Below, one piece after another: positions 707 through 49,521 of a stretch of 64,000 bases of DNA. The notes under the pieces were generated by a model. It did not search any database, was not told where the DNA came from, and saw only the letters and a program-made list of their open reading frames with translations. Every line of letters begins with the position of its first letter. Within the stretch, counting starts at the first letter, position 1. Both the position numbers and the translations under genes were made by a program. Origin of the DNA: Nemertoderma westbladi (lineage: Eukaryota > Animalia > Xenacoelomorpha); contig JAUCBJ010000128.1 in the NCBI GenBank assembly GCA_032718475.1, positions 1 through 64,000 on the forward strand, written 5' to 3'.

Positions 707-724
707 TAATTCTTGGAGCTGAAA

Positions 725-3700
725 GGGTGACCTTCCACATTAAACCATTACACTCTGTTTCCTAAAGGAATGCCTGTTCACCACCATGGGTGATCTTCTA
801 CATTAAACCCTTCCACTCTGGTTCCTATAGGAATCCCTGTTCACCACCGTGGGTGATCTTCCACATTAAACCCTTCCACTCTGTGTCCTAAAGGAATGCT
901 GGTTCACCACCATGGGTGATCTTCCACAGTAAACCCTTCCACTCTCTTTCCTAAAGGAATGCCTGTTCATCACCATGGGTGATCTTCCACAGTAAACCCC
1001 TCCACTCTGTTTCCTAAAGGAATGCCTGTTCACCACCATGGGTGATCTTCCACAGTAAACCCTTCCACTCTGGTTCCTATAGGAATCCCTGTTTACTACC
1101 ATGGGTGATCTTCCACAGTAAACCCTTCCACTCTGTTTCCTAAAGAAATGCTGGTTCACCACCATGGGTGATCTTCCACATTAAACCCTTCCACTCTGTT
1201 TCCTAAAGGAATGCTGGTTCACCACCATGGGTGATCTTCCACATTTAACCATTCCACTCTGTTTCCTAAAGGAATGCCTGTTCACCACCATGGGTGATCG
1301 TCCACATTAAACCCTTCCACTCTGGTTCCTATAGAAATCCCTGTTCACCACCATGGGTCATCTTCCACATTAAACCCTTCCACTCTGTTTCCTAAAGGAA
1401 TGCTGGTTCACCACCATGGGTGATCTTCCACATTAAACCCTTCCACTCTGTTTCCTAAAGGAATGCTGATTCACCACCATGGGTGATCTTCCACATTAAA
1501 TCATTCCACTCTGTTTTCTAAAGGAATGCCTGTTCACCATCATGGGTGATCTTCCACAGTAAACCCTTCCACTCTGTTTCCTAAAGGAATGCTTGTTCAC
1601 CACAATGGGTAATCTTCCACAGTAAACCCTTCCACCCTGTTTCCTAAAGAAATGCCGATTCACCACCATGAGTGATCTTCCACAGTAAACCCTTCCTCTC
1701 TGTTTTTTAAAGGAATGTCTGTTCACCACGATGGGTGATCTTCCACAATAAACCCTTCCACTCTGTTTCCTAAAGGAATGCCTGTTCATCACCATGGGTG
1801 ATCTTCCACAGTAAAACCTTCCACTCTGTTTCCTAAAGGAATGCTGGTTCACCACCATGGGTGATCTTCCACATTAAACCCTTCCACTCTGTTTCCTAAA
1901 GGAATGCTGGTTCACCACCATGGGTGATCTTCCACATTAAACCATTCCACTCTGTTTTCTAAAGGAATGCCTGTTCACCACCATGGGTGATCTTTCACAG
2001 TAAACCCTTCCACTCTGGTTTCTATAGGAATCCCTGTTCACCACCATGGGTGATCTTCCACATTATACCCTTCCACTCTTTTTTCTAAAGGAATGCTGGT
2101 TCACCACCATGGGTGATCTTCCACATTTAACCATTCCACTCTGTTTCCTAAAGGAATGCCTGTTCACCATCATGGGTGATCTTCCACAGTAAACCCTTCC
2201 ACTCTGTTTCCTAAAGGAATGCTTGTTCACCACAATGGGTAATCTTCCACAGTAAACCCTTCCACCCTGTTTCCTAAAGAAATGCCGATTCACCACCATG
2301 AGTGATCTTCCACAGTAAACCCTTCCACTCTGTTTCCTAAAGGAATGCTGGTTCACCACCATGGGTGATCTTCCACATTAAACCGTTCCACTCTGTTTTC
2401 TAAAGGAATGCCTGTTCACCACCATGGGTGATCTTCCACAGTAAACCCTTCCACTCTGGTTTCTATAGGAATGCCTGTTCACCACCATGGGTGATCTTCC
2501 ACAGTAAACCCTCCACTCTGGTTCCTATAGGAATCCCTGTTCACCACCATGGGTGATCTTCCACATTAAACCCTTCCACTCTGTTTCCTAAAGGAATGCT
2601 GGTTCACCACCATGGGTGATCTTCCACATTAAACCATTCCACTCTGTTTTCTAAAGGAATGCCTGTTCACCACCATGGGTGATCTTCCACAGTAAACCCT
2701 TCCACTCTGGTTTCTATAGGAATGCCTGTTCACCACCATGGGTGATCTTCCACAGTAAACCCTCCACTCTGGTTCCTATAGGAATCCCTGTTCACCACCA
2801 TGGGTGATCTTCCACATTAAACCCTTCCACTCTGTTTCCTAAAGGAATGCTGGTTCACCACCATGGGTGATCTTCCACATTTAACCATTCCACTCTGTTT
2901 CCTAAAGGAATGCCTGTTCACCACCATGGGTGATCGTCCACATTAAACCCTTCCACTCTGGTTCCTATAGGAATCCCTGTTCACCACCATGGGTCATCTT
3001 CCACATTAAACCCTTCCACTCTGTTTCCTAAAGGAATGCTGGTTCACCACCATGGGTGATCTTCCACATTAAACCCTTCCACTCTGTTTCCTAAAGGAAT
3101 GCTGATTCACCACCATGGGTGATCTTCCACATTAAATCATTCCACTCTGTTTTCTAAAGGAATGCCTGTTCACCATCATGGGTGATCTTCCACAGTAAAC
3201 CCTTCCACTCTGTTTCCTAAAGGAATGCTTGTTCACCACAATGGGTAATCTTCCACAGTAAACCCTTCCACCCTGTTTCCTAAAGAAATGCCGATTCACC
3301 ACCATGAGTAATCTTCCACAGTAAACCCTTCCACCCTGTTTCCTAAAGAAATGCCGATTCACCACCATGAGTGATCTTCCACAGTAAACCCTTCCTCTCT
3401 GTTTTTTAAACGAATGTCTGTTCACCACGATGGGTGATCTTCCACAATAAACCCTTCCACTCTGTTTCCTAAATGAATGCCTGTTCATCACCATGGGTGA
3501 TCTTCCACAGTAAAACCTTCCACTCTGTTTCCTAAAGGAATGCTGGTTCACCACCATGGGTGATCTTCCACATTAAACCCTTCCACTCTGTTTCCTAAAG
3601 GAATGCTGGTTCACCACCATGGGTGATCTTCCACATTAAACCATTCCACTCTGTTTTCTAAAGGAATGCCTGTTCACCACCATGGGTGATCTTCCACAGG

Positions 3701-4227
3701 AAACCCTTCCACTCTGGTTTCTATAGGAATGCCTGTTCACCACCATGGGTGATCTTCCACAGTAAACCCTCCACTCTGGTTCCTATAGGAATCCCTGTTC
3801 ACCACCATGGGTGATCTTCCACATTAAACCCTTCCACTCTTTTTTCTAAAGGAATGCCTGTTCACCACCATGGGTGATCTTCCACAGTAAACCCTTCCAC
3901 TCTGTTTTCTAAAGGAATGCCTGTTCACCACCATGGGTGATCTTCCACAGTACCACAGTAAACCATTCCACTCTGTTTCCTAAAGGAATGCTTGTTCACC
4001 ACAATGGGTAATCTTCCACAGTAAACCCTTCCACCCTGTTTCCTAAAGAAATGCATGTTCACCACCATGAGTGATCTTCCACAGCAAACCCTTCCCCTCT
4101 GTTTCTTAAAGAAATGTCTGTTCACCACTATGGGTGATCTTCCACAGTAAACCCTTCCACTCTGATGGTTCCTATAGGAATGCCTGTTCACCACCATGGG
4201 TGATCTTTCACAGTAAACCCTTCCACT
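725..4227 (-). repeat. 63-bp tandem satellite, about 55 units, forming the 3' extension of a SINE
   Basis: Unit on plus strand TTCCACTCTGTTTCCTAAAGGAATGCCTGTTCACCACCATGGGTGATCTTCCACAGTAAACCC repeated with point variants. Confidence 0.97.
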
Positions 4228-4402
4228 ATATTTCCCACGTTGCCTTGGTTCCCATTTACCGACCATCCAAGGGTGAAAGCCCGGGTTGGGCTAGGCTGCA
4301 GCATTTAAAGCAGAGTGCCCAAACAGTGCTGCCCCTATCTAGGGATCGAACCAGGGCTTCCTGAATGGAAGCCCAGGAATATAACCACTAGATCAAGCTG
4401 CT
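4228..4402 (-). mobile_element. tRNA-derived SINE (head and core)
   Basis: Minus strand GCAGCTTGATCTAGTGGTTATATTCCTGGGCTTCCATTCAGGAAGCCCTGGTTCGATCCC has an A box (TAGTGGTTA), a B box (GGTTCGATCCC) and a TCC anticodon-like loop, followed by core CTTTCACCCTTGGATGGTCGGTAAATGGGAACC; diverged second copy at 9584. Confidence 0.8.
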
Positions 4403-5885: not shown

Positions 5886-6527
5886 CTAAAAGTCTGTTTC
5901 AAAACTTGTTTTGTAACACTGTGTTAAAAGCAGATAGAGTAGTCTATGAATAAACATTTTACAATTGTGTGTCTTTCATCTATCCTATCGTTTCTGTAAT
6001 CTGATTAAGGAGGTAAAAGACCGCATCAGCTGTAGAATAACCTTTTTGTATGCAAATTGAAAAATATCATCAGTGGATTTACTTGCATTACGAAATACTG
6101 AAATATATCTAGAGCCAATAATGTTAAGCCAAAGTTACCTGACATTCTGAGTATTAATTATTATCCATTGTTGTGAACTTGTGATGCCACCTCACGCCGT
6201 TTTGGTGTAATTGCAAATAATGAGTGAGCAACCACAGTATCATCAGGTTGAACGATTGTTTAGTCTACTGCGTGATTCACACTCACTGCAGTACCAAACA
6301 GCCAGAGTACAGAATACTGCACTGAGAGTACAGGAGTACCGGTACTGCTGTACTGGAGTTGTACAGATACAGAGATATAGCAGTATACGGGTATAGCAGT
6401 ATAGGCCATAGGCCTACTCGACATCAGTATACAGTATACGTCTGCACGTTGTATATACCTGTATACTGATATATCATTCTGAAGATAATATAGAAACACT
6501 ACACTGCTACTGGCTGACAGGACTGGG

Positions 6528-7265
6528 ATGGCCGATGTCAATGGAATACCTGACAGTTGGGAGAATGAAAACGTACCGGTACCGGATCCAGAGCCGGCAA
6601 CGAAACCGGTCGCCTTGGTTTCCGACAAGTGGGAAGGAGAGGATGAAGACGACGATGATATAAAAGACGCGTGGGATGCCGACAGCGACTCGGGGGAGAA
6701 AAAACCGGTAGAATCGAAGAAAAAGAAACCGCTTGGCGAACGAATACGGGAGAAGGAAGAGCTAAAGAGGAAACTGTTGGAGGAGAAACGGGAGTCTCAG
6801 AAAACCGCGGAGCAACTGAAAACCGATAATTCCCTCCAACAAAAATACCAGGAGGAATCCGACTTCGAACTGACTAAAGATATGTTTCGCATAGACGATT
6901 TGGCCGCTAATGATTCAGACAGCATCGACAAGTTTAACCCTAGAACTGTGGAAGATTTCGATAAATTCCAAGATAATTTGGTTAAGAAGCTGCGAAGCCT
7001 AGAGAGTTTGCCCCTGTACCACCGATTTCTAATGAATCTCTGCAGGGATTTGTGTATTAATATGAGTTCCGAGCAGATTAAAGACATTGTCGGCACTACG
7101 ACGGCGCTGTTTAACGAGAAAAGTAAACTCGAGAGGAGCGCTTTGGGTAAAATTAAAAAGAAATCGAAACCCAGGATTATGGGAGGGAAGGCTGGTGCTA
7201 AAGATGGTGTTAATGAACTCAATGAGGACGATGTTGGATATGATGAATTCGACGATATATTCTAG
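6528..7265 (+). CDS. EIF3J: Eukaryotic translation initiation factor 3 subunit J, single exon
   Basis: 245 aa with DSWE, DKWEGEDEDDDDIKDAWD, QEESDFELTKDMF and C-terminal YDEFDDIF motifs typical of eIF3j/Hcr1. Confidence 0.92.
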   Translation: MADVNGIPDSWENENVPVPDPEPATKPVALVSDKWEGEDEDDDDIKDAWDADSDSGEKKPVESKKKKPLGERIREKEELKRKLLEEKRESQKTAEQLKTDNSLQQKYQEESDFELTKDMFRIDDLAANDSDSIDKFNPRTVEDFDKFQDNLVKKLRSLESLPLYHRFLMNLCRDLCINMSSEQIKDIVGTTTALFNEKSKLERSALGKIKKKSKPRIMGGKAGAKDGVNELNEDDVGYDEFDDIF

Positions 7266-9583: not shown

Positions 9584-9765
9584 AGCAGCTTGATTTAGTG
9601 TTAACAATCTGGGTTTTCATTCGGGAGGCTCCAGATTTGTTCCCTCGATGACGCATTTTTTTTTACTGTTTTGGCACAGGACTTTAAATGCTGCAGACTA
9701 GCTCTACCAAGGATTTCGTCCTTTGATGGTCGATAAATGAGAACCATGGTAACTTGGAAAACAGA
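9584..9765 (+). mobile_element. Second, more degenerate copy of the tRNA-derived SINE
   Basis: Aligns with the reverse complement of 4228-4402 (GCAGCTTGATTTAGTG...TTTAAATGCTGCAG.CTAG...GATGGTCGATAAATGAGAACC). Confidence 0.75.
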
Positions 9766-10387
9766 GTGGAAGGGTTTATTATGGAAGATCACAAATGGTG
9801 GAGAACAAGCATTTCTTTTGCGCTTTAGGAAACATAGTGGAGGGGTTTACTATGGAACATCACCCACGGAGTGAACAGGCATTCCTTTAGTAAAGAGACT
9901 GGAAGGGTTTACTGTGGAAGATCACCCATGGTGGTGAACAGGCATCCTTTAGGAACCAGAGTGGAAGGGTTTACTGTGGAAGATCACCCATGGTGGTGAA
10001 CAGGCATCCTTTAGGAACCAGAGTGGAGGGGTTTACTGTGGAAGATCACCCATGGTGGGGTACAGGCATTCCTTTAGGAAACATAGTGGAAGGGTTTACT
10101 GTGGAAGATTACCCGTGGTTGTGAACAGGCATTCCTTTAGGAAACAGAGTGTAAGGGTTTACTGTGGAACATCACCCATGGTGGTGAACAGGCATTCCTT
10201 TAGAAAGCAGAGTGTAAGGGTTTACTGTGGAAGATCCCCCATGGTGGTGAACAGGCATTCCTTTAGGAAACGGAGTGGAAGGGTTTACTGTGGAAGATCA
10301 CCCATGGTGGTGAACATTCATTCCTTTAGGAAACAGAGTGGAAGGGTTTACTGTGGAAGATCACCCTTGACAGCGTACAGGCATTCA
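9766..10387 (+). repeat. 63-bp satellite array, about 10 units, inverted relative to 725-4227
   Basis: Unit GTGGAAGGGTTTACTGTGGAAGATCACCCATGGTGGTGAACAGGCATTCCTTTAGGAAACAGA. Confidence 0.95.
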
Positions 10388-10580: not shown

Positions 10581-11834
10581 TGTACGCGCTTTTGAAGACC
10601 TTTAGCAGTTTAACCTGCCAAAATTTATATGTCTTTTGGTTTATAAATAGACTTTAGAAGTTGACAAATATTTAATACCAATAAACACAACATTAGCAGA
10701 AGCCAGCCTAGTGCGCGTCCATTCACCCGCTGGATATACCCGGGAGACTGGATTCTGAGGGCTTAGATTATTATTGCAGTGTAAGCTTACTGTATTATTC
10801 GATTGATCGTTAATAAATAATTTCTGACTAATATTATTCACTTTCGGGAAATATTAACAGTTCCTTTAGGACGTGGCGCTCTATCTAGGTAAACAGAGAT
10901 ATGACTTATACTAATCACAACGGCAAGTCGGTAAGGCTTATGATTCACGTATGAGGCGCATTCTTTAGGAAATGCTTAGTTATCAGTCACAATCAGGCAC
11001 ACTACCGGTAACACACAATACTGCTCACTAATTTGCCGACCGTCAATGAATTTTATCATATATAAAGCGAACAGCAACGGACTCATGTAGTGCTTATCAA
11101 ATAGCATTAAATTCACTACAAACCACAACAATATAAGTCGCAATCGCTATATATAACCCGTCTCTCTAACCTGTAGTGTATCAAGAAAATTGGGAAATTT
11201 GGGTTCTTTATAGATGTTCTCCAAATAATATTCAACCAACTGATACAAAATATGACAACAGTAAATAGCAGTATAATAATGTATGTTGAACAGATAATGT
11301 AAGACTGAAGTGAGATAAGATAACAGTTATACGCTCTATAATTTAAACCTACTAATGTTTCTTCTAAAGTATGAAAACGAGTTGACTCTAGAGCCGGTGT
11401 TCCTGGCCTAGATAGAAACAACACAACAGTATCACGAAAAACAGTAAGACTGAACACTCCTAGCATGATCTGCCAAAATATCTCCACATCGACAGAAAAA
11501 ATCGCTCTGATTGGCTGTTAAGCTAAAGAAAGAACCATGTGTCCAATGGCCGTTTCCATGTCAGCAACCAGCTGTTAGATGTCGTAAGCTGAATCATCAA
11601 GGCTAAGCTGTGCCAGGGTATTTGGTGCATTGCGGGTTTTTTGCCTTACCATGTCCGCCAAAGCACACATATAGAAGAATGACGTTTATGTCCGTTAAAA
11701 CACCTATAACGGTACCTTGCGGGCGAGGGGGATATATATATATAGTTAGAGAGCTTTTTAGAGTATTCCAGCGCCTGGGGGAAAACTGGATTGCAAAGCA
11801 AAAGGGCCAGTTATATCCCACAGAAGCTTTTACA
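10581..11834 (-). repeat. 3' LTR of element A (1254 bp)
   Basis: Direct repeat of 34132-35383 with only a handful of substitutions and small indels. Confidence 0.97.
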
Positions 11835-17900: not shown

Positions 17901-18326
17901 ACAGGAGTGACTTTGGGAACGACAGGCCTAATTATTTCAGGCTCATCAACTATAGTAGGGAGTTTTTTGACCTTAATAATTTGGTCTGTAGGTTCTATAC
18001 TACTTAAGTCCGTGCTAGCTAGTTGTCTTCTAACAGCTGGGGGCAAATCAGGCAATTTGTGACGGTAAGATGTTTTTCTACGCCTGCTTAGACGAGATCT
18101 ATTTCCTCCGCCTTCAGGATCGGTGGTTTCGCTTTCCTCCGATGATGTATATCCCTGGCGTTTGGGAGTAGATCTTCTCATCATCTGCATGTGACTAGCA
18201 GTTAACTGTTTATTTATGTTGTCTTGCGTCTCTTGCAGATTTTCCAACTCTAGTTGGGTAGTCTCCTCAGACGCTCTCAGTTCTGCTTTTGCCACCGCTG
18301 CCTTTCTTTCTGCTTCTGCTGCTGCC
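14992..18326 (-). pseudogene. Element A gag-protease, 3' part (frameshift near 17230; RT/RNase H/IN deleted)
   Basis: KFNGD..WLPF DUF1759-like capsid region, three Cys/His knuckles (CALCDGPHRLSAC, CYNCLRSGHQRRTC, CAKCGAKHHILLH), protease LLDSGS, then only the RNase H tail WRHCLGTINPADIASRG..WLGGSDFL. Confidence 0.9.
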
Positions 18327-19597
18327 TGTGCCGGATACTGATCACAATACGATGTATATTAGATAGGTTATACAGTATGTTTTAGCTCGTATAGGTCGTG
18401 CCACCGGAAGTGACACGATGCCCGGGCTGATTCAGGCTTTGTGATAGCAGCTATCTGAGGATAGTAGAACAGGCTATCTATTGGCATTGCTTTTTTACCG
18501 CTCTGCTACATTTCCTGTTCAGTCAGTAGGTGAGCCTACCGACCGGTAGACTCACTGACAACTGTGCGACATTTATAGCTAGGCTTTGCCTTAGCTTACA
18601 GTCTTAAGCTAAGGGCCTATTTACCCGTAGGTCCGACAGACCGGCTTCTGTTTGCATAGTGCAGCAGTGGTTGGATGTGCTGTCAGGCTGTGTGTGTCTG
18701 ACATTTTGTCAGACACGAACTTTATCTGTGAGTTCGCTTGTAGAATATACCGTATGGTTTATGGTATATTTATATTTCTGTATTCGTGCCTTGTCAGTCA
18801 TTATATTATACGACCTGAGACCGCAGTAGTTTACATGAGTTTTTTCATATTAGATGGAGTCAGTAGCCTCAGCCTGACAGTCCCCGTAGCTAGCGCGTCT
18901 TTATCCATACTTCACCCCTAGCAATTGCCATCCTTTACCGATCCGCCGATAGGACATTCAGACTCAGGGTCTGACTATTAGACTGCAGACCCCGCGTCTG
19001 AATGTTGGACTATCGTTCCCAGTTATTGGGCCTCAGGATAGTCGGACCAAGCCGACTATCGGACTGTTGTATTTATTTATTGCCAGCGGTCGTTCTACTG
19101 TTCTAGTTAGCGGCCATCCGGCACAGTAAAAAAGCAACCTTTACAGCTTTAAACAGTCATTAGACTGTCTGACTGTTAGACTGTTAACAAAAAAGCATCC
19201 TTTCTGCCTTTAAACAGTCATTCTGTCATTAGGCTGTTAGTAAATAAAATAATTAGGGCCTAAGCATTAAAATACATTTCAGCATTTATATTTAGGCCTA
19301 AGTCTGTAAGTCTGAAAAAAGTGTATTTCTGTATTTTTACAAATAATTCCAGAATGTCAGGCTAAGCCTTTAGCCTTCTTCCGTCTTCAGCCTTAGTACT
19401 GAAGTACCGTAGTCAGCAGGTCAGGTAGTAACTTTTCTATTGCCCAGGCATATATCAGTAGCGCTGTAGCCTATATATTTGAAATTACCGGTAGGCCAAC
19501 ACTAAACTTTAAGTAGTACCGAGTTTTCGGTTGTTTAAATTAAATTGCCAAATTGTTTATTGTTTACTTGTTGCAATACCAGAATACCGGTACTAAA

Positions 19598-22500
19598 ATG
19601 TCAGCTCCAGGTGCCGAGAGCAGTAGTAGCACAAGTTCTGGGACAACAAACTCGGTGCTAGCGATGCAGCCACTTGATGAATCCCAGCCTCCTTCCCAAG
19701 GGGATATTGTCGGGTTGGATGGACTGGATATCCCTTCATTAAGATATAAACTACGTGCACATAAGGGTAAGTTTACCAAAATATATAGTGAATTTATGGA
19801 ATGTCACCAACGAATTACCGTAGAGCAGCGCAAAATACGGCTATTTACAGCCAAGCAAACATTGCATGATATTAATTGTATATGGTCAGCCTTACTTGTA
19901 AAATTTCAATTGCAAGGAAATGAGGACCAACATGCAATTTCGAAAGTGGAACGCGCAGAATATCATGAGATGCAGTGTGCCAAATTACGCGAAATATATA
20001 GCCATTTACAGGGACCAATAATTCCTGTACCGGTATTAGGAGACACACCTAGTCCCGTTCATATCGATGAGACACCATATTATAATGATACAGTCGAACA
20101 AGTCAGTCAGGGTGATTCAAGTAGACAGGGACACACATTTACCGCGAGTACACCTGCCAATTTTAATGATATGGATACATTGGTGGACATATCAACAGGG
20201 GCAGGCGCAGGGGGCATTAGTGAAGAGACACCAGTTTGTCCCATTGCTGTAGACATTTCTGCAGCAGTGTATTCACTGAATAAAGGCCCATTGATACCTG
20301 ATAGTGGTAGTGAACCAGTTAAATCACCCATAGACGCTGGTGTCGTTTGTACTGAAATGGTGATGGGGTCTAGGGCTGTACCAAATGACATTACTGCCAG
20401 GAATGTTACTGGTAGTGATACTAGTTCACAAATCAAACCATCGGATTCGGTTTCACAACATAGTTCACAGCTTTCTGAGAAATCTAAATCATTAAGGGCT
20501 CTCAGGAGGCATCAAAGGGCTTTGCTTAAGACTAAACAAATGGAAAATAACCTACGTTTAGCTGAGGCGCTTGATAGTGAAGAAACGAAACTCAAAACGG
20601 CTCAACTAGAGGCAGAGGCAGTTGCTGCTGCAAATAAACGTTTAGTCGATCTCAAACTTGAGCAACAGCAATCTAGGGCTAAACGCCAACTTGCTGTCAC
20701 TGAGTCTCATAATGACCTAGAACGGGCTACATTAGAGGTCCTTTTGTCGACAGATGAACCTGAAGTTTTAGCTGCTTTAGAGGCAGGTTCAGATCCATCT
20801 AACTATAGATCACCAATTATGGCTTTATTTAATAAGCCTAAAGTAGACACTAATCCTTGTATAGTCACATTTCAGCAAGATGGTGGTGAATTATCCTCTG
20901 TTGGTCCCATAAGACAGGAGGACACCTACATGCCTATAAACCCTAGGCCTAGGCCACTATCTCCTATTGTTTCTATTCTACACAACCAACCATTTAATTC
21001 GACTCAAAATCGTAATGACATGTCAGTTGAAGTCGATATGCAGGATTCTAGTCCTGAATATAAATTGACTATGCCAACTGTGGACGAGGGAATGCAAACT
21101 GATACTCACTTTGTTATTACCCGTTCTACACAGGTTACACCTACTGAAATTGTCACTGCATTGCCCCCTGGCCCCATGACACGGTCTTTGGACAACAGGG
21201 ATATCTCTGAATCCCAATATAGTGGCAGTCAACGATATCTTCACTATACACATACGAACAATGACGGTGATGATTATAGCCACACAAATATAGATAATGT
21301 AAATACATTTGTGCCCAGCTATAATCCAAGCACTACAATTTCAAATATAGCACAGCCATCACAAAAAACCCACAGAGTGGACCCAATAGTGACAACTGTT
21401 TCCCCCCAGGCCCAGATGTCCTCCCGCAGTTGGGCTGTACCTGATAAATTACTTGATAAATTGTCAGAGCCTATGTTTAACTCTTTATTGCAGGGCTCAC
21501 AACCTATGCCTATAAACCATTTAGGAGTAGGTGATGTGTTTAAGCCACCATATAAGGGTGGAATTAGAAGTGATACACCATCAAATGTACAAAAATTTTC
21601 TACACCTGAGAATTTTTACCATTTCGATTGTTTGAAAGCAAACCCTGTGCTTAATTCGAGTCCAGGATTCCAGATACCTGTTCCTGGGGCACAAAATTCA
21701 CCTGAATCGCCAATTAACAATTGGCCCATACCTGAACCATTACAGAACCCTTTTCATGATCCAGGTCACCGTGTGGGGATGGGATCTACTCCTAATATCG
21801 AATCACAGATGTGTGAAGTCATGACACAGGTTATGAATGTTAGTGCCATGAGTGTAAAGGCTATTGAAAGGCTAAACACTAAGCTTTCATTGCCAAAAAT
21901 GGAAGTGCCAAAATTTAATGGAGAAGCTAGTGGCTATATAAATTTTGTAGCTAGTTTTATTTCTTATATTGAATCTCAAGAATTAAATGAAATGGAAAAA
22001 TTCATGTGCTTAACACAATATTTGGGCCCAATTCCCCTTGGTCTGGTTAAAGGGTTTTTAGGTTTGCCAGGTGGGTATAAAGCCGCTTGGGATGCCTTGC
22101 ATGGAAGGTATGGCCATCCGAGTGTTATAGTTGAGAGAATTATAACAGAATTGACAGAAAAAGTTGATCTGAACTCTGGTTCAGAAACACAACGTAGGTT
22201 CAAATTGCAAAATTATGCAGACAAGATCTCACAAATGGTTTTGGTTTTGCAATATTTTAAATCAGCGGATGAAATGAATTCATCTACCAATCTGCGAAGG
22301 GTTGCCGAGAACCTCGACATTCGAATGTATGAGCGGTGGAAACGCAAAGTTTATTATATTAGACAAAACCACAACCGTGAACCTAGATTAACTGAACTTG
22401 CAGAATATATAAAATGTGAAGCACAGATTGTTAATGATCCTGTTTACGTTGATGTAGGTGGTGGCTACAGGCCAAACCAAACAGCTAATGTACCAGGGTC

Positions 22501-25500
22501 AAGTCAATCCAGTAAACCAAGTCCACAGCGAGTGTCCACAATAAATAACTTAAATTCAACACCAATGGCTACATTAAATTATGTGTCAACCACTGGTGCA
22601 CCATCTGGTTATAGAGGGACCAGCAGAACTAGGGGAGGTGGAAATCGACCTTTTAGGCCTGCTTCAGCTTCAGCACATGGACCTGACCCATCCACACGAT
22701 CAAACGATCCTATGAAGTCCCCAGAACCAGTTCAAGGAACTTCTAATGGAGCAGGCTATAAAGAGGAAAATACATCCACAATTCCAAAGCGAGTATTAAA
22801 TTGTTCTTATTGTGAACTAGAAGGACATACAATATCCCATTGCTCAAAGTTTAATCATTTGGACATTATCCATAAGGTGGCATGGTACCACAGTGGGGAT
22901 GTATGTCACTATTGTGTGGAAAGGGGGCATAGGAATACTGTCTGCCCAAAATATTCAAAAATAACACGCAAACCAATCTGTGAGCATTGCCAAGGTGCTC
23001 ACCACTCTGTCCTTCATTGGATTCTTGGTTATATAGAGGATACCAAGAAATCAGCTAAAATTAAAACATTTAGGAGTGAATTGGTTTCAAGTAATTCCAT
23101 GGCTGAGATTCCAATTTCAGCTGAAACAAATAAATCTGGTACATATAGTATCACAAATCATGATGTGACAATATTGCGTTGTGATAAGCAATCGCATATT
23201 AATATGGAGATGTGGTTGTCTGTAGTACCCGTAACTATTGACATAAATGACAAACGTCTTAGTACTTTTGCCTTGCTGGATTCAGGTTCAACTCATACAG
23301 TTTTGCATGCTAAGGTATTGCAGTTCATGAATGAAGTTCCGGATTCCCAATCTTTGATGACAATCAAAGAGGTATTATCAATTAGTGTGCATCCTATTGC
23401 TTCGATAGCTTGCTCTATTAGGCCTTTAAAAGGTCGCCCCGCAGTAGATGAAACATTTATTACTAAAGTTTCTAACACTTTGGTGTTAGACAACCTTCAA
23501 CAGACAAGAGTCCCAGATCTGGCAAGTATAGATTTGTCAGCATATCCAGATTTCCAGCCATATCTGGATCAACTAGTTCCTTCAGGTATTGAGTTACCAG
23601 AAGTTACTATAATCATAGGTCGGGATGCTGGTTACATTCATGAACATGCAATAGTTCAAGAAACAAGAGAAGGCCCTACTATTGTGCATACACCATTTGG
23701 GTATGCCTTAGTGGGACCAATTCCATCTGTTAAAGTGAATTGTGAAATCAGGCATCTTGAAATATCCAGTTATGATTGGGTGTCTGTAGTTAAACAACAA
23801 TTAGGTTTGGAAGGTTATACTAATGATGACAATCAGGTTCTGAAACCAATGTCCAACGCTAAGGATGAGGAAACCGTCTTATCACGGAGCGATGAACGAG
23901 CATTATCCATACTTAAGGAAACAACTACCTTAGATAATGGTCGGTATACTGTAGGAATGCTCTGGAATCAAAATCCTCCTCAATTAATAAATAACTATCC
24001 ATTGGCGAAGCGTCGACTGGATGGCTTAATACGTCGTTTAGAAAAGTATCCAGCCAAATATCAACAATATCATAATCAATTGTTAGATTATGAAACTGCA
24101 GGATATGCAGTAAAGTTATCATTGGAAGAATTTAAAACACATTCACCACAAACTTATTACCTACCTCATCATCATGTTGAACATGATAGTAAACCTGGTA
24201 AGATCCGCATAGTTAATGATGCGGCAGCCATCTATAAAGGGATGTCATTGAACTCCCAATTATTAGATGGTCCACCACAAATTATACCCCTCATTGGAGT
24301 ATTAATACGTATTCGTTTAGGGAGCATTGCTTTCTGTTGCGATATAGAGGCAATGTTCCACCAGATTGGTGTAACTAGGGAGGACTCCGACAGCCTTCGG
24401 TTTCTATGGAAGCCACCTAAGGGTGATATGGTTGTCTATAAAATGGTTCGACACCCATTTGGAGCGCGTGATTCACCTTGCATAGCAGGTAACACTGTTA
24501 AACAGTGTGGGAAAGACCATAATGACTTATTTGTTTCTGATGTTGCTAGAGTTATTGATGAGTCATTTTATGTTGATGATGGTCTACCATCAGTTGACTC
24601 AGTGGAAGAGGCCACTCAATTAGCGCATGACCTAATTGATTGTCTATCCTTAGGGGGTTTTAATCTTAGAAAATTCCAGTCAAACAGTAAAGAGTTTCTG
24701 GCTTCCATGGCTTCAGATGCTCTCAGTCCTAAAGTTGATCTAGACCTTGACCACTTGCCAGTGACTAGAGCCCTTGGTGTGGTTTGGGACCCACAAGCTG
24801 ATATATTTACCTTTGATGTGAAGGTTAAACAACGTCCTTATACTAAAGCAGGTTGTCTTAGTAAGTTTGCGTCAACATATGATCCTCTGGGGTTCCTTGC
24901 ACCATTTCTAGTTCAGGGTAAACTAATAATACAGTCTATCTGGAGAGCAGGGTGTGACTGGGATGATAAAATCCCAATGGAACTGCAAAGAGCGTGGATA
25001 AAGTGGGAGAATCAACTTCCTCTTCTTAATGATGTAGAGATAGACCGCCTCCTGCGGCAAGATCTTCCATCTAGTTGCAACTATCAATTGCACTTGTTTT
25101 CTGATGCCTCTGATTATGCATATGGGGCTGTGGCATATATACGTGCTGAGTATAATAGGGATGTACGTGTAAACATATTATACTCAAAGAGTCGTATTGT
25201 TAATATGGCTTCAATTACTTCTACACCTCGACTAGAGTTAGAAGCCGCCGTATTACTGACAGACATCATTGTGATGCTGCGACTTGAGTTGCATCTCGGT
25301 GATGTACCAGAATATTTCCATACTGATTCTACAGTAGTATTAGGGTATATTCGTAACCCTACATGTGTTTTGAAACGCTATGAAGCAACCCGTGTTAATA
25401 AAATTGTCTTGAGAACTACTCCTAACTCTTGGCATCATGTACCAGGAGTTTTAAACCCGGCTGATGATATCAGTCGTGGATTATCCGTCAAGAACTTGCT

Positions 25501-28500
25501 AAATAAATCCCTTTGGTGGCATGGCCCACCATACCTTACGGATTTACCATCCACTTGGCCACGGCCAATTACCGACATTGATATTCCTACAGGGGATAAT
25601 AATCCTGAGGTTAATTTATCCAATTTTGATCCGGGGGTCTATGTTGGTAACATTAACACCCTAGGACTAACTTCTTTAGATCGGCTGATCTATGAAGAGG
25701 GGGCTATCTGCCATGAGGGGGCAGATACATGCAACTTACAGTGTGCATATGTTGCAAACCTCTCATCTAGCATTGTCTATGACTGCGAGAATGAGACATG
25801 GCGCTCTGTAGTTGACTTAGACATCAATGACAAAGATGACGTCACGCTAGAAAATGATCATCTAGCACCCATTGAGATAAATCTTCACAAAATTAACTTA
25901 GCTAAGGATATGTCTATTGATGATAGACTTAAGTATTTCATCAATAAATATTCATCCTGGTATTTGCTGTGTTTACTTACAGCGTGGCTTATACGGTTGT
26001 TTGATTGGCATGTCTGGTGCCTCGGAGTCAAACAAAAGAAAGTATTAGAAACCGAAATGAGCGTAAATGCACGTGTGACAATTGCAGAATTGCGTAAATC
26101 TGGCTCATGTATCTTGCGTTATGTTCAGAAACAGACATTTAGTAAGGAATATGAATGCCTTAAGAGAGGTCATTCAGTCCCAATAAATAGTAAATTACGT
26201 AACTTAGTACCACATATAGATACAGATGGTTTAATTCGAGTTTCCAGTCGTATAAACGCATCTAATAAGCCTTATACAACTGCAAATCCAATCATTCTGC
26301 CAGCGCGCCATCCAGTGACCTCAGCGATTATTCGTTATACACACACTAGAATGGGTCACTTAGCAACCAATGCAACTCTGTCAGAAATTAGGCGGAAGTA
26401 TTGGATCATTGCTGGACAGAGTCAAGTACGACAAATTATAGGGAAATGTTATCGCTGTAAACAAACACGCGCAAAACCAATGACACAAATTCAGGCTAAT
26501 TTGCCTGAAACCAGAATACAACCATACCACCCACCTTTTGAACATAGTGGGTGTGATATGTTTGGTCCTTACACTTTAGAGCGGAGAGCAACACGTTCTA
26601 CTTTGTATGACATTCGTTATGGCATGATATTTACATGTCAAGTAACTCGTGCCGTACACCTGGACCTTGCAGCAGATGCATCATCTGATGCATTCATTAA
26701 TTGTTTACGTCGCTGAGCAACAGGTATGAGGCTCTTGCCTCTGAGGCGGCAGATCACTGTGAGGGCTATACTGCCTTTACAGAAGCAGTTAAGTTAGCAG
26801 CTGCAGAAACAGTTCCTGTATACCCTCGAAACAGGAAAAGGGCCCCCTGGACTGACAACAAAATTCAGAAGTGCCGAAATGACCTTCATAAGGCGCAGAA
26901 AGAGTCCCGACTCAAACAGACTACAGCGGCCAAGAATGCAGTTAAAGCTGCATCTAGGTCCCTGAACAGGCAGTACTCTGCTAATCTACAGGAGCTAATA
27001 AACCAACAGGTTGATGCCATCAATGATGCTGACGACAGCAGGCAATCATCCCAGGCATGGAAATCGATCAATCTGCTTACTGGGCGGAAAAGCCAACCAA
27101 CCACCAAGGTTAAGGCTGAATCACCAGCCGATCGCCTCAATGGTTGGAAAGCCCACTTTGAAAAGCTCCTCAATAATGACAGGGTATTGCCTGATAACTT
27201 TATAGAAGTAAAAGTGTCTGAGTCTGTACTCCCAGATATTCCCATTGGCGATATCTCCTTTGCAGAAGTGAAGGCTGCTGCAAAGAGCATTAAGACCAAT
27301 CGTGCCAGTGGTGTAGATGGTGTTCCCCCTGAGGTCTTTAAAATACCTGAGTGTTTAAAGCTCATCTATCCCATCATAGTAGACATGTACCGTACAACAA
27401 GAGTCCCACAAGAAATGAAAACAAATAAGTTGGTGCCAGTTCCCAAGAAGGGCAACCTAACACTCTATGGTTCTTTTCGGGGAATCTCATTGATCTCGAT
27501 TGCTGCAAAACTATACAATAGAATTCTATTAAATCGCATCAGGGATCCCATTGAGAGACTGCTACGTGGAAATCAGAATGGGTTCCGTAAAGGTCGTGGG
27601 ACCATGGAGCCCATTTTGGCACTTAGAAGGATAATTGAAGAGTTATCAAAAAAGAAAGACAGGCATCTGGCTGTTATCTTTGTTGACTTCTTCAAGGCCT
27701 TTGATTCAGTCTCTCGCTCACGTATGTTCAGCATACTTTCATTATATGGGATTCCTGATGAAATTATTGCAGCAATCAGATCAGTATACGATGGTTCGAC
27801 AACATTTGTGTCTACTGTTGACGGTGACACAGAACCATTTGAAGTGTTATGGGGCGTCCTCCAAGGAGACACACTTGCACCATTCTTGTTCATTATTGTG
27901 GTTGACCCCAAGCTTGACACTAGAACAAAATCGCCTCCGCTTTGCAGGACATTGCTTTCGCCGTGAGGACCAGCCAGTGCATAATCTTGTACTTTGGCAG
28001 CCTCATGGAGTGAATAAGCATGGAGGACAGCCCATGACTTTCTTGAGACGCATCTTAAAGGACACTGGCCTTAAAGATGCGGATGATCTAGCAAATGTCA
28101 TGGGTGATAGGGAGTTGTGGCGGTGCAATTTTGTTGACAAGCCGGCATAGCATTCTTAAAAATGCAGCTGCAATGCAGCATGCCGATCCTAGTAGTAGTA
28201 GTAGTTTACGTCGCTTCACAGGACGTAGAGGTGGAGTATCCCATATGTACTCAGATAATGGCTCAAATTTTGTGGGCGCCGAGTCACAACTGGGATACTA
28301 TAGAGCTTTAGTGAGTGAACCTGGGGTTGCAGATTTTCTTCGTAAAAGTGGTATAGAATGGCACTTTGGAGACCCTTACGCTCCCCACGAACGAGGTTTC
28401 ATTGAACGCCTTATTGGCATAACTAAACAAATTTTAATGTCAACATTGGGTGACCGGCTTGTAACCGAGGATGTGTTAATGACATTCCTCGTTGAAGTAG

Positions 28501-28946
28501 AGAATATTCTTAATAGTCGGCCTTTGACAGCATTATCTGACGACGCAAATGATTTTGAGCCACTCACACCCAACCATATTCTCTGTAACAGACCCGCAGA
28601 GAATGCACCAATAGCTGAAACAAATGCTTCAGATTTTGGTAGTCGCCATACTTACCTTCAAACTGAGGTTCTCCGTGACCTTTTTTGGAGAAGATTCAAC
28701 ACGGAATACATTACATTACTCCAAAAGAGACCGCTCTGGAATAAAGTTGAGCGAAACATTCAAGAAGATGACGTTGTTCTTATTACTGACCCCGACAAAC
28801 CTAGGTCCAGATGGTCTTATGGTAGGGTAATATGTACATACCCAGATGCCAATGGGATTGTACGCAATGTGCGTGTGCGTGCCCAGAATGGACATGAATA
28901 TAAACGTCACATTCACTCATTGTGTCTGCTGGAGCAGGCAGAGTAA
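19598..28946 (+). CDS. Element B gag-pol polyprotein (2615 aa after removing the LINE and one TSD copy)
   Basis: PKFNGE capsid region, zinc knuckles, protease LLDSGS, RT DIEAMF..YVDD, RNase H FSDAS..PRLEL..TDS..NPAD, integrase H..H..C..C and D(MFGP)-D(NGS)-E(RLI); rejoining 26714 to 28216 restores CLRRFTGRRG in frame. Confidence 0.95.
26715..28203 (+). mobile_element. 5'-truncated, internally deleted RTE-clade LINE inserted in the integrase of element B
   Basis: TSD GTTTACGTCGCT (26703-26714, 28204-28215), (TAG)n tail, RT motifs VPKKG, RGISL, QNGFR, DFFKAFDSV, GVLQGDTLAPFLF, then a jump to the C-terminal RLRFAGHCFR..LVLWQP; the YADD region is missing. Confidence 0.92.
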
Positions 28947-29129
28947 TGAGGCGATTACAAAGTCTTGTTAGACGTATTTACTTCAACACATTTCGTTTTT
29001 TAAATGTACGTTTAAATTTGTCAACTGTCAGTGGTATGCATCGCTGGCACAAATTAAAAGGTAATAATAAGTTAGTTTAATTAAGCTTTATTAGTATAGG
29101 CCATGTAGAGCTACTAGTAGGGACTGCTA

Positions 29130-29322
29130 GGGCGCTTACAAGCCCGAAGATAATGTGGGTATGGAGAAAAGGGGCGTTTACAAGCCCAAAGATATGTGGG
29201 TATGGAGAAATGGGGCGTTTACAAGCCCAAAGATATGTGGGTATGGAGAAATGGGGCGTTTACAAGCCCAAAGAAAGATATGTGGGTATATGGAGAAATG
29301 GGGCGTTTACAAGCCCGAAGAT
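29130..29322 (+). repeat. About 40-bp minisatellite in the 3' UTR of element B
   Basis: Five copies of GGGCGTTTACAAGCCC separated by AAAGATATGTGGGTATGGAGAAATG-like spacers. Confidence 0.9.
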
Positions 29323-31007
29323 ATGATAGGGACTTCATATGGGTCACTTAAAAGTACAATAGAAACCCATCAAATAATGGAGATAATGATATGATACAAT
29401 ATGGGCTAAAGGATACAACTAATTGTTGAAGGATGCCTAGCTCATATATACATATATATTGCTCAGATGATTGAATTTGCAAGTTATTTTATATTTATGT
29501 TTATAATGATGAAATATAGACAATTTGATCTTTCGGGCCATACTAAATTCCTTTGGAACCGTTAGCATTAGGATTAACTGCTTAAGTCCATTTTTTTTTA
29601 TTGTGTTCATTACTTAATTTCAAGTAAATCATCTTTACATGTCCTACTACTTGTAGTTTAGAGTTGCCTTTATTATTACAAATTTGTGTATGGTGGTGGG
29701 ATATATTTTGTTTACAAGTGATCTCACAGCTCACAATTTTTGTAAAGTTAATCGAAAACATATTTGTAATTTAAAACGCCAACCATGTGTTTTACACACA
29801 TGAGCCATATGTAGCCTGAAATATTTTTAAATAGATAAAAGACAGTATGGTGATCATTAATCTTGCGCAATACTCCTTTGGAAGTAGTGTGCGATTTATC
29901 TCTTGCGAAATATATTTTATATATTATTTGGGATACTAAAGGAGCTGAGTATTGCTGTGTTGATTCTTATCAGATTTTAATTATATGTTTCTAATCTACC
30001 TATACATCTTGGTCCCATTGTGGCTGGTTGTGGATTCTTAAACGATACCTGACAACCCAATGTCATTGTATGTCCGCCCCTTACATTTAAGGATCTCTAA
30101 ATACTAACTGCTGATTGGGCAACACAGCATATACTTAGAAAGCAATATGTATCCTCGTTTTTATATATTTTGTCATGGTTGGATTTCATTCTACGCCTGC
30201 AAATCCAGAGGGGGCTGTGCCGGATACTGATCACAATACGATGTATATTAGATAGGTTATACAGTATGTTTTAGCTCGTATAGGTCGTGCCACCGGAAGT
30301 GACACGATGCCCGGGCTGATTCAGGCTTTGTGATAGCAGCTATCTGAGGATAGTAGAACAGGCTATCTATTGGCATTGCTTTTTTACCGCTCTGCTACAT
30401 TTCCTGTTCAGTCAGTAGGTGAGCCTACCGACCGGTAGACTCACTGACAACTGTGCGACATTTATAGCTAGGCTTTGCCTTAGCTTACAGTCTTAAGCTA
30501 AGGGCCTATTTACCCGTAGGTCCGACTGACCGGCTTCTGTTTGCATAGTGCAGCAGTGGTTGGATGTGCTGTCAGGCTGTGTGTGTCTGACATTTTGTCA
30601 GACACGAACTTTATCTGTGAGTTCGCTTGTAGAATATACCGTATGGTATATTTATATTTCTGTATTCGTGCCTTGTCAGTCATTATATTATACGACCTGA
30701 GACCGCAGTAGTTTACATGAGTTTTTTCATATTAGATGGAGTCAGTAGCCTCAGCCTGACAGTCCCCGTAGCTAGCGCGTCTTTATCCATACTTCACCCC
30801 TAGCAATTGCCATCCTTTACCGATCCGCCGATAGGACATTCAGACTCAGGGTCTGACTATTAGACTGCAGACCCCGCGTCTGAATGTTGGACTATCGTTC
30901 CCAGTTATTGGGCCTCAGGATAGTCGGACCAAGCCGACTATCGGACTGTTGTATTTATTTATTGCCAGCGGTCGTTCTACTGTTCTAGTTAGCGGCCATC
31001 CGGCACA

Positions 31008-31866
31008 CTGCCGCTGCCTTCGCTGCTTCTGCTTCTGCCGCTGCCTTTGCTGCTTCTGCTTCTGCCGCTGCCGCTACCTTTGCCGCTTCTGCTTCTGCCG
31101 CTGCCGCTACCTTTGCTGCTTCTGCTTCTGCCGCTGCCTTTGCTGCTTCTGCTTCTGCCGCCGTTACTGCTGCTGCTTTTCAGTCCTCTATCTGTTTTTT
31201 CTTTACTTGTTCTTCTTGGACTCTAGTGAGGCGGAGTTTTTCATCAAATTCAGCTTGGTTTGCAGCTAACATTTCCGCATCGATTGCGTCCAACACAAGC
31301 TTGGTTCCTTCACTATTGGGGCGAAGTCCAGACAGTCGTCTCCTCAACTCTTCGTCTCCTAGGAATCGCTGATAGTCTGACAGATAGATGTCAATGGCGT
31401 CTCTAGTTCGCGGCTTCTCTGCTGTTAATTCGCTTTCCACTTCGCTTTCCACTTGAGAAGAAGTGGCGTCGGTTGATTCTTCATAGGTTGGCCGTTCATC
31501 ATAAACCGTATCCGCCATCTTCGCTCCGCGTTCGGGCGTCCGCTCAGCAGTATCCGAACTACTGGAGCTATCGGGCCGCTGAGAACTAGGTTCTAGGCTA
31601 GGATGTTGCTGCTGTTTGACAGCTGCTTCTTGATCCCGCTTGACTTGGGCCCGAGTACCGATGATAGACCTACGTTGTTCTACTAGCCTAGGGTCTGACA
31701 CTATTACTGTAGGGATGGCCTTTTTGACAATAGTAGGTGACTTCGACTTGGATCTAGGATGTTCTATACTTGGATCTGGGTCACTGATCTTTTTAAGACA
31801 CTGTCTAACAGTCATTCTAACACTTTCTAAGAGACTATCCGACAGTGATTGGGTTGTGTCAGACAT
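31008..31866 (-). pseudogene. Element A gag, 5' part
   Basis: ORF from ATG 31866 with an in-frame TGA at 31180-31182, then (AEAEAAK)n repeats that join in frame across the CTGCC TSD to ...RKAAVAKAEL at 18326. Confidence 0.88.
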
Positions 31867-34131
31867 GTTTGTTTGTACAGTTGAATGCCTACTGCTATGA
31901 TTATAGCTAAAGCAAGTCTAGCAATTCAGTATCACTGTTAGCCTAGTAATTAATTACCGATACTGCTACTCAGTGTAGCGTGATATATATATAATATATT
32001 AGAATACCGGTATGCTTATAGTATATATATAAGTATTATTACAGACTAGATTTGTTACAGAGTACCGGTATATAATTTTAGCACAAATATATAAATATAT
32101 AATAGGCCTATCGTGAATACCGGTATGCAGCTTACACTTATAGTATATATAAGTATAATTATGAACTAGAATTAATTACAGAATACCTGTATGATTTCAG
32201 CCCAACTTTATAGAAATAAATGTAATAAGCCTATGGTAAATACCGGTATGCCAATTATTTTAGAATAATTGAATTTCTGAATATTTTAGGGTTACTTGGT
32301 TACTTTAACTCACTTTATTACTGTTATTTAAGCAGTAGACCAACTGATATTGGGACCTAGTTGTTGTATAGCAGGCCTACTATTTATAAATCGTTTGAGT
32401 TGATTTATAATATATATATACCCGTTTAAAATGGGTCTTGTCAATATTTGAAATAAATGTTATTATTTCTGGGGGAGTCACTACACAGAAGCTTTGCGCT
32501 CTCAGTGAAGTGCTACTTATGGGACACTAAAACAGATTATTCTAATTTACCTAAGTTACTTAATACTACAAATTACTTACGATACGGGTGAGATTAATTC
32601 TCTAATTAAAACACAACAAAATATTACGTATGAAATTTTAGGGTAATTTTACAGGAAGTCTACAAACCAGTCTAACAAAGGGTTAGAACTTCTGGTTATT
32701 ACAACGGACAGGGTACTACGGTATTTGAAAATAATAAGTAGTAGTAAATACACTGTGTTGTCCAGATAGGAAAATACCACCGTCTGACGACCTATAGCCG
32801 TATCGCTATAGGTACTACGTTATGTATCACGGAGTGTCCCTACCTAGAAGTTAATTACCACGGTCTACCAGAACCAACGTGCCTATTAACCACTTTACAA
32901 CACAAATATACTGCCTACACACTAATTACCTTCGGAAAGCACTGTACACTAAACCCTAAATTAGGTACAAGTACTGGTACAACAACAATTAGTAGTTAAA
33001 TATACTTGAACAGTTAAAAGAACCACGGCATCTGCTGGAGTGACCGAAGCACAAAGTCACCAGTCTTTTCCTACGCAAAGCAGCCCGTGTAGTACCGGGG
33101 TTAATTTAACTATAACGGTATGTGTAACAAGCACAATTACTGTAGGAATAAACTTGGGGACATGAATGTTGCGAATAATCGCATAAACTCTGAATAATAA
33201 ATATTACGCTACCCGTACAGAATACTCAAACAAAATACAAACCAAACGCTGGCAGACTACCACCAAGCCTAAATAAACTACAGTATGTGCAGATTCCGAA
33301 ACGGTTAGTTAGTATGCGTTCTAACACGGTAGTACGACTTATTCTTTAAGAGGGGATTGACCTTACAGCTATGGCTGCCCCAACTTACTAACTGGCACTT
33401 TATCAGACAAACTCTACACACGCAGCAATCTCTTCAGACCTAATAATAGCTAGACAACAATCCAGCCTACAAAATATCTGGGTAATAACTATTACGGTAC
33501 CTGAACAGACCACACAAACAAACACAGGCCAAAACGCTGGCAGAATACTGTCAAGTCTAAATAAACTACAGTATGTGCAGATTCCAAAATGGTTAGTTAG
33601 TATGCGTTCTAACACGGTAGTACGACTTATTCTTTAAGAGGGGATTGACCTTACAGCTATGGCTGCCCCAACTTACTAACTGGCACTCTATCGGACAAAC
33701 TCTACACACGCCGTAATCTCTCCAAACCCAACAACAATCCGACAACAGTCCGGCCTACAGTTATCTGAACAATCTGAGCAGACTTACACGTCTTCAGCTC
33801 AATATTAACTTACTAGGAAATAAAACTGACAGAAATAGACCTAAGTAAAATCCCAATAAAAACCAGGCGTTCCCGATTTAATATCGAGACCTACCGGTAT
33901 ACAATAATCAAATAGAATAATACTAATGTACTTATACTGGAAGTACCGGTTAGGAAAGTTGGGCCTACGGACCTACAGAAGTACCGGTTCTGGCAGTTGG
34001 ACCTACGGACCTACAGCAGTACCGGTTCTGGCAGTTGGGCCTACTGACCTACAGAAGTACCGGTTCAGGTTTACCGGTCGACCGGTACTTTCAACTTTAT
34101 TGCTTACTGCAATAAAGTCAATAACTGTTAT

Positions 34132-35383
34132 TGTACGCGCTTTTGAAGACCTTTAGCAGTTTAACCTGCCAAAATTTATATGTCTTTTGGTTTATAAATA
34201 GACTTTAGAAGTTGACAAATATTTAATACCAATAAACACAACATTAGCAGAAGCCAGCCTAGTGCGCGTCCATTCACCCGCTGGATATACCCGGGAGACT
34301 GGATTCTGAGGGCTTAGATTATTATTGCAGTGCAAGCTTACTGTATTATTCGATTGATCGTTAATAAATAATTTCTGACTAATATTATTCACTTTCGGGA
34401 AATATTAACAGTTCCTTTAGGACGTGGCGCTCTATCTAGGTAAACAGAGATATGACTTATACTAATCACAACGGCAAGTTGGTAAGGCTTATGATTCACG
34501 TATGAGGCGCATTCTTTAGGAAATGCTTAGTTATCAGTCACAATCAGGCACACTACCGGTAACACACAATACTGCTCACTAATTTGCCGACCGTCAATGA
34601 ATTTTATCATATATAAAGCGAACAGCAACGGACTCATGTAGTGCTTATCAAATAGCATTAAATTCACTACAAACCACAACAATATAAGTCGCAATCGCTA
34701 TATATAACCCGTCTCTCTAACCTGTGGTGTATCAAGAAAATTGGGAAATTTGGGTTCTTTATAGATGTTCTCCAAATAATATTCAACCAACTGATACAAA
34801 ATATGACAACAGTAAATAGCAGTATAATAATGTATGTTGAACAGATAATGTAAGACTGAAGTGAGATAAGATAACAGTTATACGCTCTATAATTTAAGCC
34901 TACTAATGTTTCTTCTAAAGTATGAAAACGAGTTGACTCTAGAGCCGGTGTTCCTGGCCTAGATAGAAACAACACAACAGTATCACGAAAAACAGTAAGA
35001 CTGAACACTCCTAGCATGATCTGCCAAAATATCTCCACATCGACAGAAAAAATCGCTCTGATTGGCTGTTAAGCTAAACAAAGAACCATGTGTCCAATGG
35101 CCGTTTCCATGTCAGCAACCAGCTGTTAGATGTCGTAAGCTGAATCATCAAGGCTAAGCTGTGCCAGGGTATTTGGTGCATTGCGGGTTTTTTGCCTTAC
35201 CATGTCCGTCAAAGCACACATATAGAAGAATGACGTTTATGTCCGTTAAAACACCTATAACGGTACCTTGCGGGCGAGGGGGATATATATATAGTTAGAG
35301 AGCTTTTTAGAGTATTCCAGCGCCTGGGGGGAAACTGGATTGCAAAGCAAAAGGGCCAGTTATATCCCACAGAAGCTTTTACA
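34132..35383 (-). repeat. 5' LTR of element A (1252 bp)
   Basis: Direct repeat of 10581-11834, upstream of gag on the minus strand. Confidence 0.97.
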
Positions 35384-49300: not shown

Positions 49301-49521
49301 CCCTTCCGTGGGTGGTAGATGTCGCGGTTATGTATTGGTGGTTGGGAAGGGTGGGGGGGGGGGGGGGGATTAAAAGGGGTGAACACGTACTGTCCCCCTT
49401 TCTTTGATTGATTGGTGGTGTGGGTAAATTTCTCAAAACCTGATTTTGTGATACAGTCGCTCAATTTTAATTTGTATCTCATAACTGGGCCTCGTGCTGC
49501 GCGAAGGCCCCACGAACGTGT
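46373..49521 (+). mobile_element. Helentron-associated non-autonomous element (HINE/DINE-1-like), head-to-tail dimer of a ~1.51-kb unit
   Basis: 5' TGTGGGGCGAGCCACGAAG (56-bp head duplicated), (CTGTCGTT)n microsatellite, 3' CGTGCTGCGCGAAGGCCCCAC with GTGGGGC/GCCCCAC subterminal inverted repeat; ~46500-48012 nearly identical to ~48013-49521. Confidence 0.7.

Follow-up and report, generated by a model that had tools for sequence, protein, structure and literature searches.

The window, by which we mean the whole 64,000-nucleotide stretch of DNA analysed, carries the host genes eIF3j (6489-7265) and WDR46/BING4 (41074-42780) together with retroelements that we call A, B, C and D. Each gene consists of one long open frame with no apparent intron, which may reflect either an intron-poor host or retrocopies. 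Comparison of the window with itself revealed an 800-nt direct repeat (18326-19125 versus 30215-31007) that includes the long terminal repeats (LTRs) of element B. This element occupies 18327-31007 on the plus strand and is bounded by a target-site duplication (TSD), CTGCC at 18322-18326 on the left and at 31008-31012, directly after the 3' LTR, on the right. Its 5' LTR (18327-19125) is 799 nt long, runs from TG to CA and has an 8-nt terminal inverted repeat; a polypurine tract (30207-30214) lies ahead of the 3' LTR (30216-31007). One substitution and one 7-nt indel separate the two LTRs, and a single contig from the public run X1 that spans 30246-30973 has two differences and no gap.

The gag-pol frame of B (19598-26716, plus strand) stops at a LINE-type insertion. 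Domain searches with the 2390-codon frame matched Peptidase_A17 (E = 1.6e-40), DUF1759 and Integrase_H2C2, and the frame beyond the insertion, which holds the remaining integrase and DUF5641 (28204-28946, plus strand), matched DUF5641 and rve. Within gag-pol the motifs run in the order CCHC-type, protease, reverse transcriptase (RT, with YVDD at 24569) and RNase H, with an integrase zinc finger after them, roles that we take these motifs to have. The closest of the homologues listed have identical Pfam domains and are 37-43% identical to B. The LINE-type insertion itself (26715-28203, plus strand; RVT_1), which splits the integrase, is truncated and flanked by a 12-nt target duplication, seen as direct repeats at 26703-26714 and 28204-28215. 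Because contigs from X1-X3 join 26702 to 28204, the insertion is particular to this copy of B.

Element B is a young Bel/Pao LTR retrotransposon. Like Belpaoviridae/Semotivirus, it has a single LTR-flanked gag-pol in the order protease-RT-RNase H-integrase with the Bel/Pao-type domains Peptidase_A17, DUF1759 and DUF5641, TG...CA LTRs of 0.8 kb (0.2-1.2 kb in Bel/Pao), a polypurine tract, a 5-nt TSD and a metazoan host, the best matches of the window's WDR46 being to animals at about 50-56% identity. Unlike the family as profiled by the ICTV, which gives an 18-nt primer-binding site (PBS) for the 3' end of tRNA-Arg or tRNA-Gly and priming by host tRNA (PMC8742986), B has no such PBS. Since its membership in Bel/Pao rests on the pol domains, we file B as a variant in priming. 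The B LTR holds no AATAAA, ATTAAA or TATA hexamer, so that R has no definable limits; Rfam gave 0 matches over 18000-36000, ARAGORN found 0 tRNA genes in the window, and a search of viral contigs produced no relative.

Element B is inserted in the gag of element A, which lies on the minus strand at 10581-35383 (5' LTR 34132-35383, 3' LTR 10581-11834, TSD CTACA). A bears DUF1759, has 1.25-kb LTRs and a long leader of ~2.2 kb, and its contig cover in X1-X3 is very deep. Its ORFs in the window give DUF1759 and a weak protease match, with no RT match, and A is possibly a non-autonomous high-copy family. Element C (49700-55093, plus strand) is a broken and truncated, Bel/Pao-like, DUF1759-bearing element with gag near 50571. 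Element D (59244-64000, plus strand) is cut by the window end and has gag near 61467, with a gag-like frame from about 61526, and a candidate LTR at 59244-60440. No second LTR of either C or D is present in the window.

Complementarity between the primer-binding site and the LTR

The initial annotation held that the 12 nt adjoining the 5' LTR of B (19126-19137, GTAAAAAAGCAA) do not begin with TGG and are the exact reverse complement of 18487-18498 within the LTR. The sequence bears out both points, and the position of the LTR edge follows, without recourse to the pairing, from the TG...CA termini, the CTGCC TSD and the purine tract ahead of the 3' LTR. When the LTR was shuffled with its dinucleotides preserved, 12 flush matches arose in 2 of 5000 shuffles and at least 11 in 6 of 5000, and Markov models put the expectation for B's flush match at about 1e-4. 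Among 2970 start positions in the internal region of B, the PBS itself was the sole one to reach 12 matches.

Position 19137 is A in the window and T in one contig each of X1, X2 and X3, which represent two samples; among the X1-X3 rows listed, beyond which there are at least 636 more, no change appeared at the partner site. T also stands at the position equivalent to 19137 in a partial, 9-nt duplicate of the PBS within the leader (19189-19197, plus strand). On the strength of these T residues we take the family duplex to be 11 nt long, likely 18488-18498 with 19126-19136, and 18487 gives a 12th pair in this copy only. The 12-nt duplex originally described is thus exact here and probably one pair longer than is typical of the family. 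We annotate 19126-19136 (plus strand), flush with the LTR end and without TGG, as the candidate PBS of B, and 18488-18498 (plus strand), contiguous and without an intron, as its predicted self-primer. In the leader (19126-19240) the PBS and the stretch that follows it are locally duplicated, the second copy, at 19189, being partial. The A at 19137 could, speculatively and in this one case, be a copy made from the primer during plus-strand synthesis.

Element A shows the same arrangement. Its PBS position (34121-34131, minus strand) is flush with the LTR and lacks TGG, and its 11-nt complement lies at LTR positions 503-513 (34871-34881, minus strand); 6 of 5000 shuffles get to 11 nt. The first PBS base of A (34131) is G in about 40-57% of the contig depth in X1-X3. 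No compensating change is listed for this A-to-G variant, and cover at 34871-34881 is thin; a G here could in any case pair with U. We also looked at the LTR edge for a spliced alternative to the PBS of B or of A, and none was found. Candidates in the other two elements carry no evidential weight: a 10-nt one in D (60441 with 59324), after a CA, is one among 1113 candidates, and an 11-nt match in C, 3 nt off a CA, is one among 644.

Split complements in related elements

We aligned the RT-RNase H of B with 40 of at least 120 homologues listed and fetched 80 metagenome loci, the best 80 of 548. Inspected by eye, the sites that follow the LTRs of these relatives lack TGG, and their complement is often split by an intron-like segment of the LTR. 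For an automated test, each A[CT]A of the upstream non-coding piece served as a starting point, with 0-6 nt allowed as a spacer, and the score was the length of the best match within non-coding DNA of the same locus, either contiguous or across GT[AG]...YYNYAG. Ten of the 80 loci had no candidate or testable upstream sequence and are left out of the counts. Among the 70 tested, 21 had a spliced match of at least 11 nt and 9 a contiguous one, giving 30/70 with either. Controls for the spliced class yielded a mean of 2.6 (maximum 6, 30 draws) with candidates from coding regions and 2.5 (maximum 5, 12 draws) with shuffled targets, and the targets of other loci were matched in 29 of 828 cross-locus pairs. 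The contiguous class, with 9/70 observed against control values of 3.5-3.7 (maximum 7), is modestly above control and weak alone, and three of the nine look like chance.

Grouping at 85% RT identity reduced the 70 loci to 55 families, with a spliced match in 17 and a contiguous one in 9. Nearly all spliced sites (20/21) start with GT, and 11/21 use a GTAAGT donor; at locus L040 the donor chosen automatically is probably wrong, and a GTAAGT donor yielding 11 nt is present. The 40 of 70 loci with no match of at least 11 nt have a median of 773 nt of non-coding sequence versus 1561 nt, and several of them hold over 1500 nt. At matching loci the PBS lies 0-6 nt from the LTR end and is flush in some families. 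Among L013, L024, L038, L041, L079 and L002, it stands 2-6 nt from the LTR's CA in some and flush in others. Spacers of 2-6 nt would give integrase extra bases to trim from the DNA end. For six relatives the right end of the LTR is fixed by two copies: none of the six has TGG within 3 nt of that end, and in five (L038, L065, L018, L040 and L077) a self-complement of 11-12 nt starts 0-2 nt from it. The sixth, L073, has no self-complement match in spite of its two LTR copies; neither L073 nor L077 has an LTR that finishes in a clean CA.

Changes between families bear on whether the pairing itself is conserved. We curated by eye a set of 24 families (19 spliced and 5 contiguous), each represented by a single locus and two of them with a match of 10 nt; B is 35-44% identical to these families. 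The check for covariation in related families came out positive, the first ten PBS bases taking 18 forms among these 24.

Loci L004 and L007, which belong to the same family, differ at the predicted junction. L004 lacks a segment of exactly 168 nt that begins with GTAAGC and ends in TTTTAG; the 27 and 30 bases to its two sides are identical between the loci, and the PBS of L004 matches contiguously. In L007 the intron-like segment is present in both LTR copies. Whether L004 is an intron-loss DNA copy or assembled RNA, its halves were joined at the predicted bases, which speaks for real splicing in at least this family, and the pair connects the split arrangement with the contiguous one of B and A. 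A poly(A) hexamer stands 0-89 nt past the acceptor in 14 of 19 intron-bearing loci. In a quick tree of unnamed relatives only, B sits on a branch of 1.91 and groups with the spliced family L079 among others. B is probably an intron-less descendant of an intron-bearing ancestor, a reading that its long branch and its 35-44% identity to the curated families weaken. At L065, one LTR has an acceptor before the second half of the primer and the other has the halves joined (LTR copies at 1-326 and 6700-7103); the assembly here may be a chimera of intron-bearing and intron-less copies.

Predicted folds and the start of the RNA

Beyond the core pairing, the 24 curated families show a second helix of 2-6 bp, set off by a small bulge, in which the order of G and C is swapped between families. 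In a test devised after the pattern had been seen, on families that are related and picked by eye, the second helix scored 184 versus a permutation mean of 135, none of 2000 permutations reached 184 and 19 of 24 families scored at least 6; an energy version was weaker (27/2000). These results suggest that the transcript reaches 5-9 nt beyond the core on its upstream side. The second helix of B would have 2 bp only, GG at 18483-18484 being predicted to pair with CC at 19138-19139 (plus strand) with a probability of 0.61 for an RNA that starts at 18483 and 0.17 for one that starts at 18475.

The core duplex of B is predicted with a mean probability of 0.78-0.96 for 5' ends at 18475, 18483 and 18488, and of 0.01 or less for 5' ends at 18460, 18430 and 18400. 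Folded from 18486, it reaches 0.95 in two of three lengths and 0.47 in the shortest, and in the shortest fold of B the leader duplicate at 19189 competes for the primer. The duplex of A is predicted at 0.97, down to 0.03 with a longer fold. As for the relatives with a contiguous match, folding yields the duplex in L004, L046 and L077 and, for short 5' extensions (0.96 without any upstream base, 0.0 once 49 or more are included), in L016; it is not predicted in the fold of L002.

Folding favours a transcript start for B at about 18475-18488, and the second helix makes a start at exactly 18486 doubtful. The start at 18486 that had been predicted is near the favoured range, which is wider than that prediction, and the supposed initiator there appears to be a motif resemblance only. 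The further proposal that the primer consists of the first 11-12 nt of an mRNA beginning at 18486 is not established: the second helix of the relatives points to a start further upstream, and most of their partner sites span a junction.

Source of the primer

The reading that we favour, with a probability of roughly 70%, is that B primes its minus-strand DNA in cis with a piece of its own LTR RNA and not with a tRNA. That B primes itself at all, whether in cis or in trans, we regard as highly probable. Many relatives likely use Tf1-like self-priming with a primer built by splicing. Transcription would start shortly upstream of the primer (for B at about 18475-18488), and in intron-bearing families the host spliceosome would form it by joining exon 1, which supplies about 4-9 nt, to exon 2, which supplies 4-7 nt. 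The 11-mer would fold back on the PBS, aided by the 2-6 bp second helix past the small bulge; by analogy with Tf1, the RNase H of the element's RT would cut directly 3' of the 11-mer, which in B means after 18498, and the RT would then extend from the LTR edge. By the logic of LTR replication, the intron would survive through the 3' LTR copy because it is the primer, not the template, that contains the junction. Should the 3' LTR copy also be spliced, the intron would be lost, which would account for contiguous forms, L004 for one and probably B and A as well. On balance we lean towards a wider scenario in which a broad animal Bel/Pao lineage has replaced tRNA priming by a spliceosome-built primer, such that only spliced RNA primes, the intron is inherited via the 3' LTR, and B and A descend from this lineage without the intron and with the pairing retained. 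The initial proposal of Tf1-like, tRNA-independent priming in Bel/Pao gains from the recurrence of the pairing, with changed letters, in A and in related families above controls.

The same LTR-derived primer could instead act in trans, supplied by a short, spliced and polyadenylated LTR transcript or by a second packaged genome. The poly(A) hexamers that follow the acceptor within 89 nt make short junction-bearing transcripts plausible, and a fold-back over 640-750 nt is sensitive to the span that is folded. We nonetheless consider priming in trans unlikely: the LTR of B has no poly(A) hexamer, its R-U5 is predicted to fold into many local stems that would bring both sites together, and the precedent in Tf1, as given in the available text of PMC5341516, is a fold-back within the RNA. 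A slightly less probable reading is that the duplex is kept for packaging, dimerisation, translation control or the sensing of splicing, with priming by another route. Covariation indeed says that the pairing matters and not what it is for, and the PBS of matching loci, at 0-6 nt from the LTR end, is not always flush. This reading sits poorly with a duplex whose end coincides with the LTR edge or lies no more than a few bases away, at the place from which minus-strand synthesis has to begin, with the lack of TGG at the six ends fixed by two copies and in B and A, and with a length of 10-12 nt that matches Tf1.

Priming at B's site by a tRNA of the host, whole or as a fragment, or by another small RNA would agree with the 18-nt PBS complementary to tRNA-Arg or tRNA-Gly that the ICTV gives (PMC8742986), and half-tRNA priming is known in Ty1/copia (available passages of PMC6317226). 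It is very improbable here, since without TGG a mature CCA end cannot pair, and since the PBS changes in step with the LTR between families, which a fixed host RNA leaves unexplained. The complement of B's PBS also contains six U in a row, and a run of six U normally terminates a Pol III transcript. Least probable of all is a chance match in an A/T-rich, hairpin-rich LTR. The site in B is of low complexity (six A), and the LTR has other inverted repeats of 10-11 nt; the shuffle and Markov figures for B, the independent case of element A and the 21/70 spliced matches in relatives against about 2.6 in controls all argue against coincidence.

Self-priming by B would resemble that of Tf1, in which, according to the accessible part of PMC7175516, the first 11 bases anneal to the PBS, with RNase H cleavage falling between bases 11 and 12. 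Like Tf1/Tf2 of Schizosaccharomyces pombe and Tf1/sushi elements, as these appear in partial texts of PMC7175516 and PMC5341516, B lacks a tRNA PBS, has at the LTR edge a PBS that can pair with about 11 nt (11 in B) of the LTR, and encodes an RT with RNase H motifs, whose roles we presume and whose activity is predicted. Unlike these members of the Ty3/gypsy chromovirus lineage (Metaviridae), B has Bel/Pao domains, and self-priming in B is predicted from sequence; in mechanism B would resemble them without being one of them. The available passages of PMC6317226 describe self-priming for Tf1/sushi and predict it for Tcn1 and the copia TAR lineage. In the Tcn1 clade (Ty3/gypsy) and the plant TAR lineage Houba/Osr-1 (Ty1/copia), as in B, the prediction comes from PBS-LTR complementarity; unlike the Bel/Pao relatives, these belong to other superfamilies and hosts, and in those passages no splice-built primer is described for them (PMC6317226). 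The ICTV profile presents Belpaoviridae as tRNA-primed and their replication as 'poorly understood' (PMC8742986).

Among the titles and abstracts searched, a scope that subscription journals, Repbase and GyDB lie outside, no report of self-priming or of a splice-built primer in Bel/Pao appeared. For the BEL-like elements of the Cer7 group in C. elegans, which we take to be Bel/Pao, an element's own primer has presumably been proposed; as we understand it, this is a tRNA-like RNA inside the element, unlike the LTR fold-back and splice junction of B's relatives. Looked up by term, papers on Sinbad, on metazoan and mollusc Bel/Pao elements and on LTR networks (PMC554778, PMC3118150, PMC6238403 and PMC2774666) yielded no passage on a PBS or tRNA. 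If the favoured reading is true, a third LTR superfamily primes itself, beside Ty3/gypsy (shown for Tf1) and plant Ty1/copia (predicted), which would bear on whether tRNA priming is ancestral or late, a question raised in the accessible part of PMC3601003. A splice-assembled primer would tie reverse transcription to host RNA processing, and the elements would presumably be out of reach of silencing by 3' tRNA fragments. It would also explain why PBS finders based on tRNAs would miss such elements.

Elsewhere in the window, a tandem array of units of about 63 nt extends over about 600-4240, with a related inverted array at 9754-10387, and at 46501-49521 a 1.5-kb segment is duplicated in tandem with 99.5% identity.
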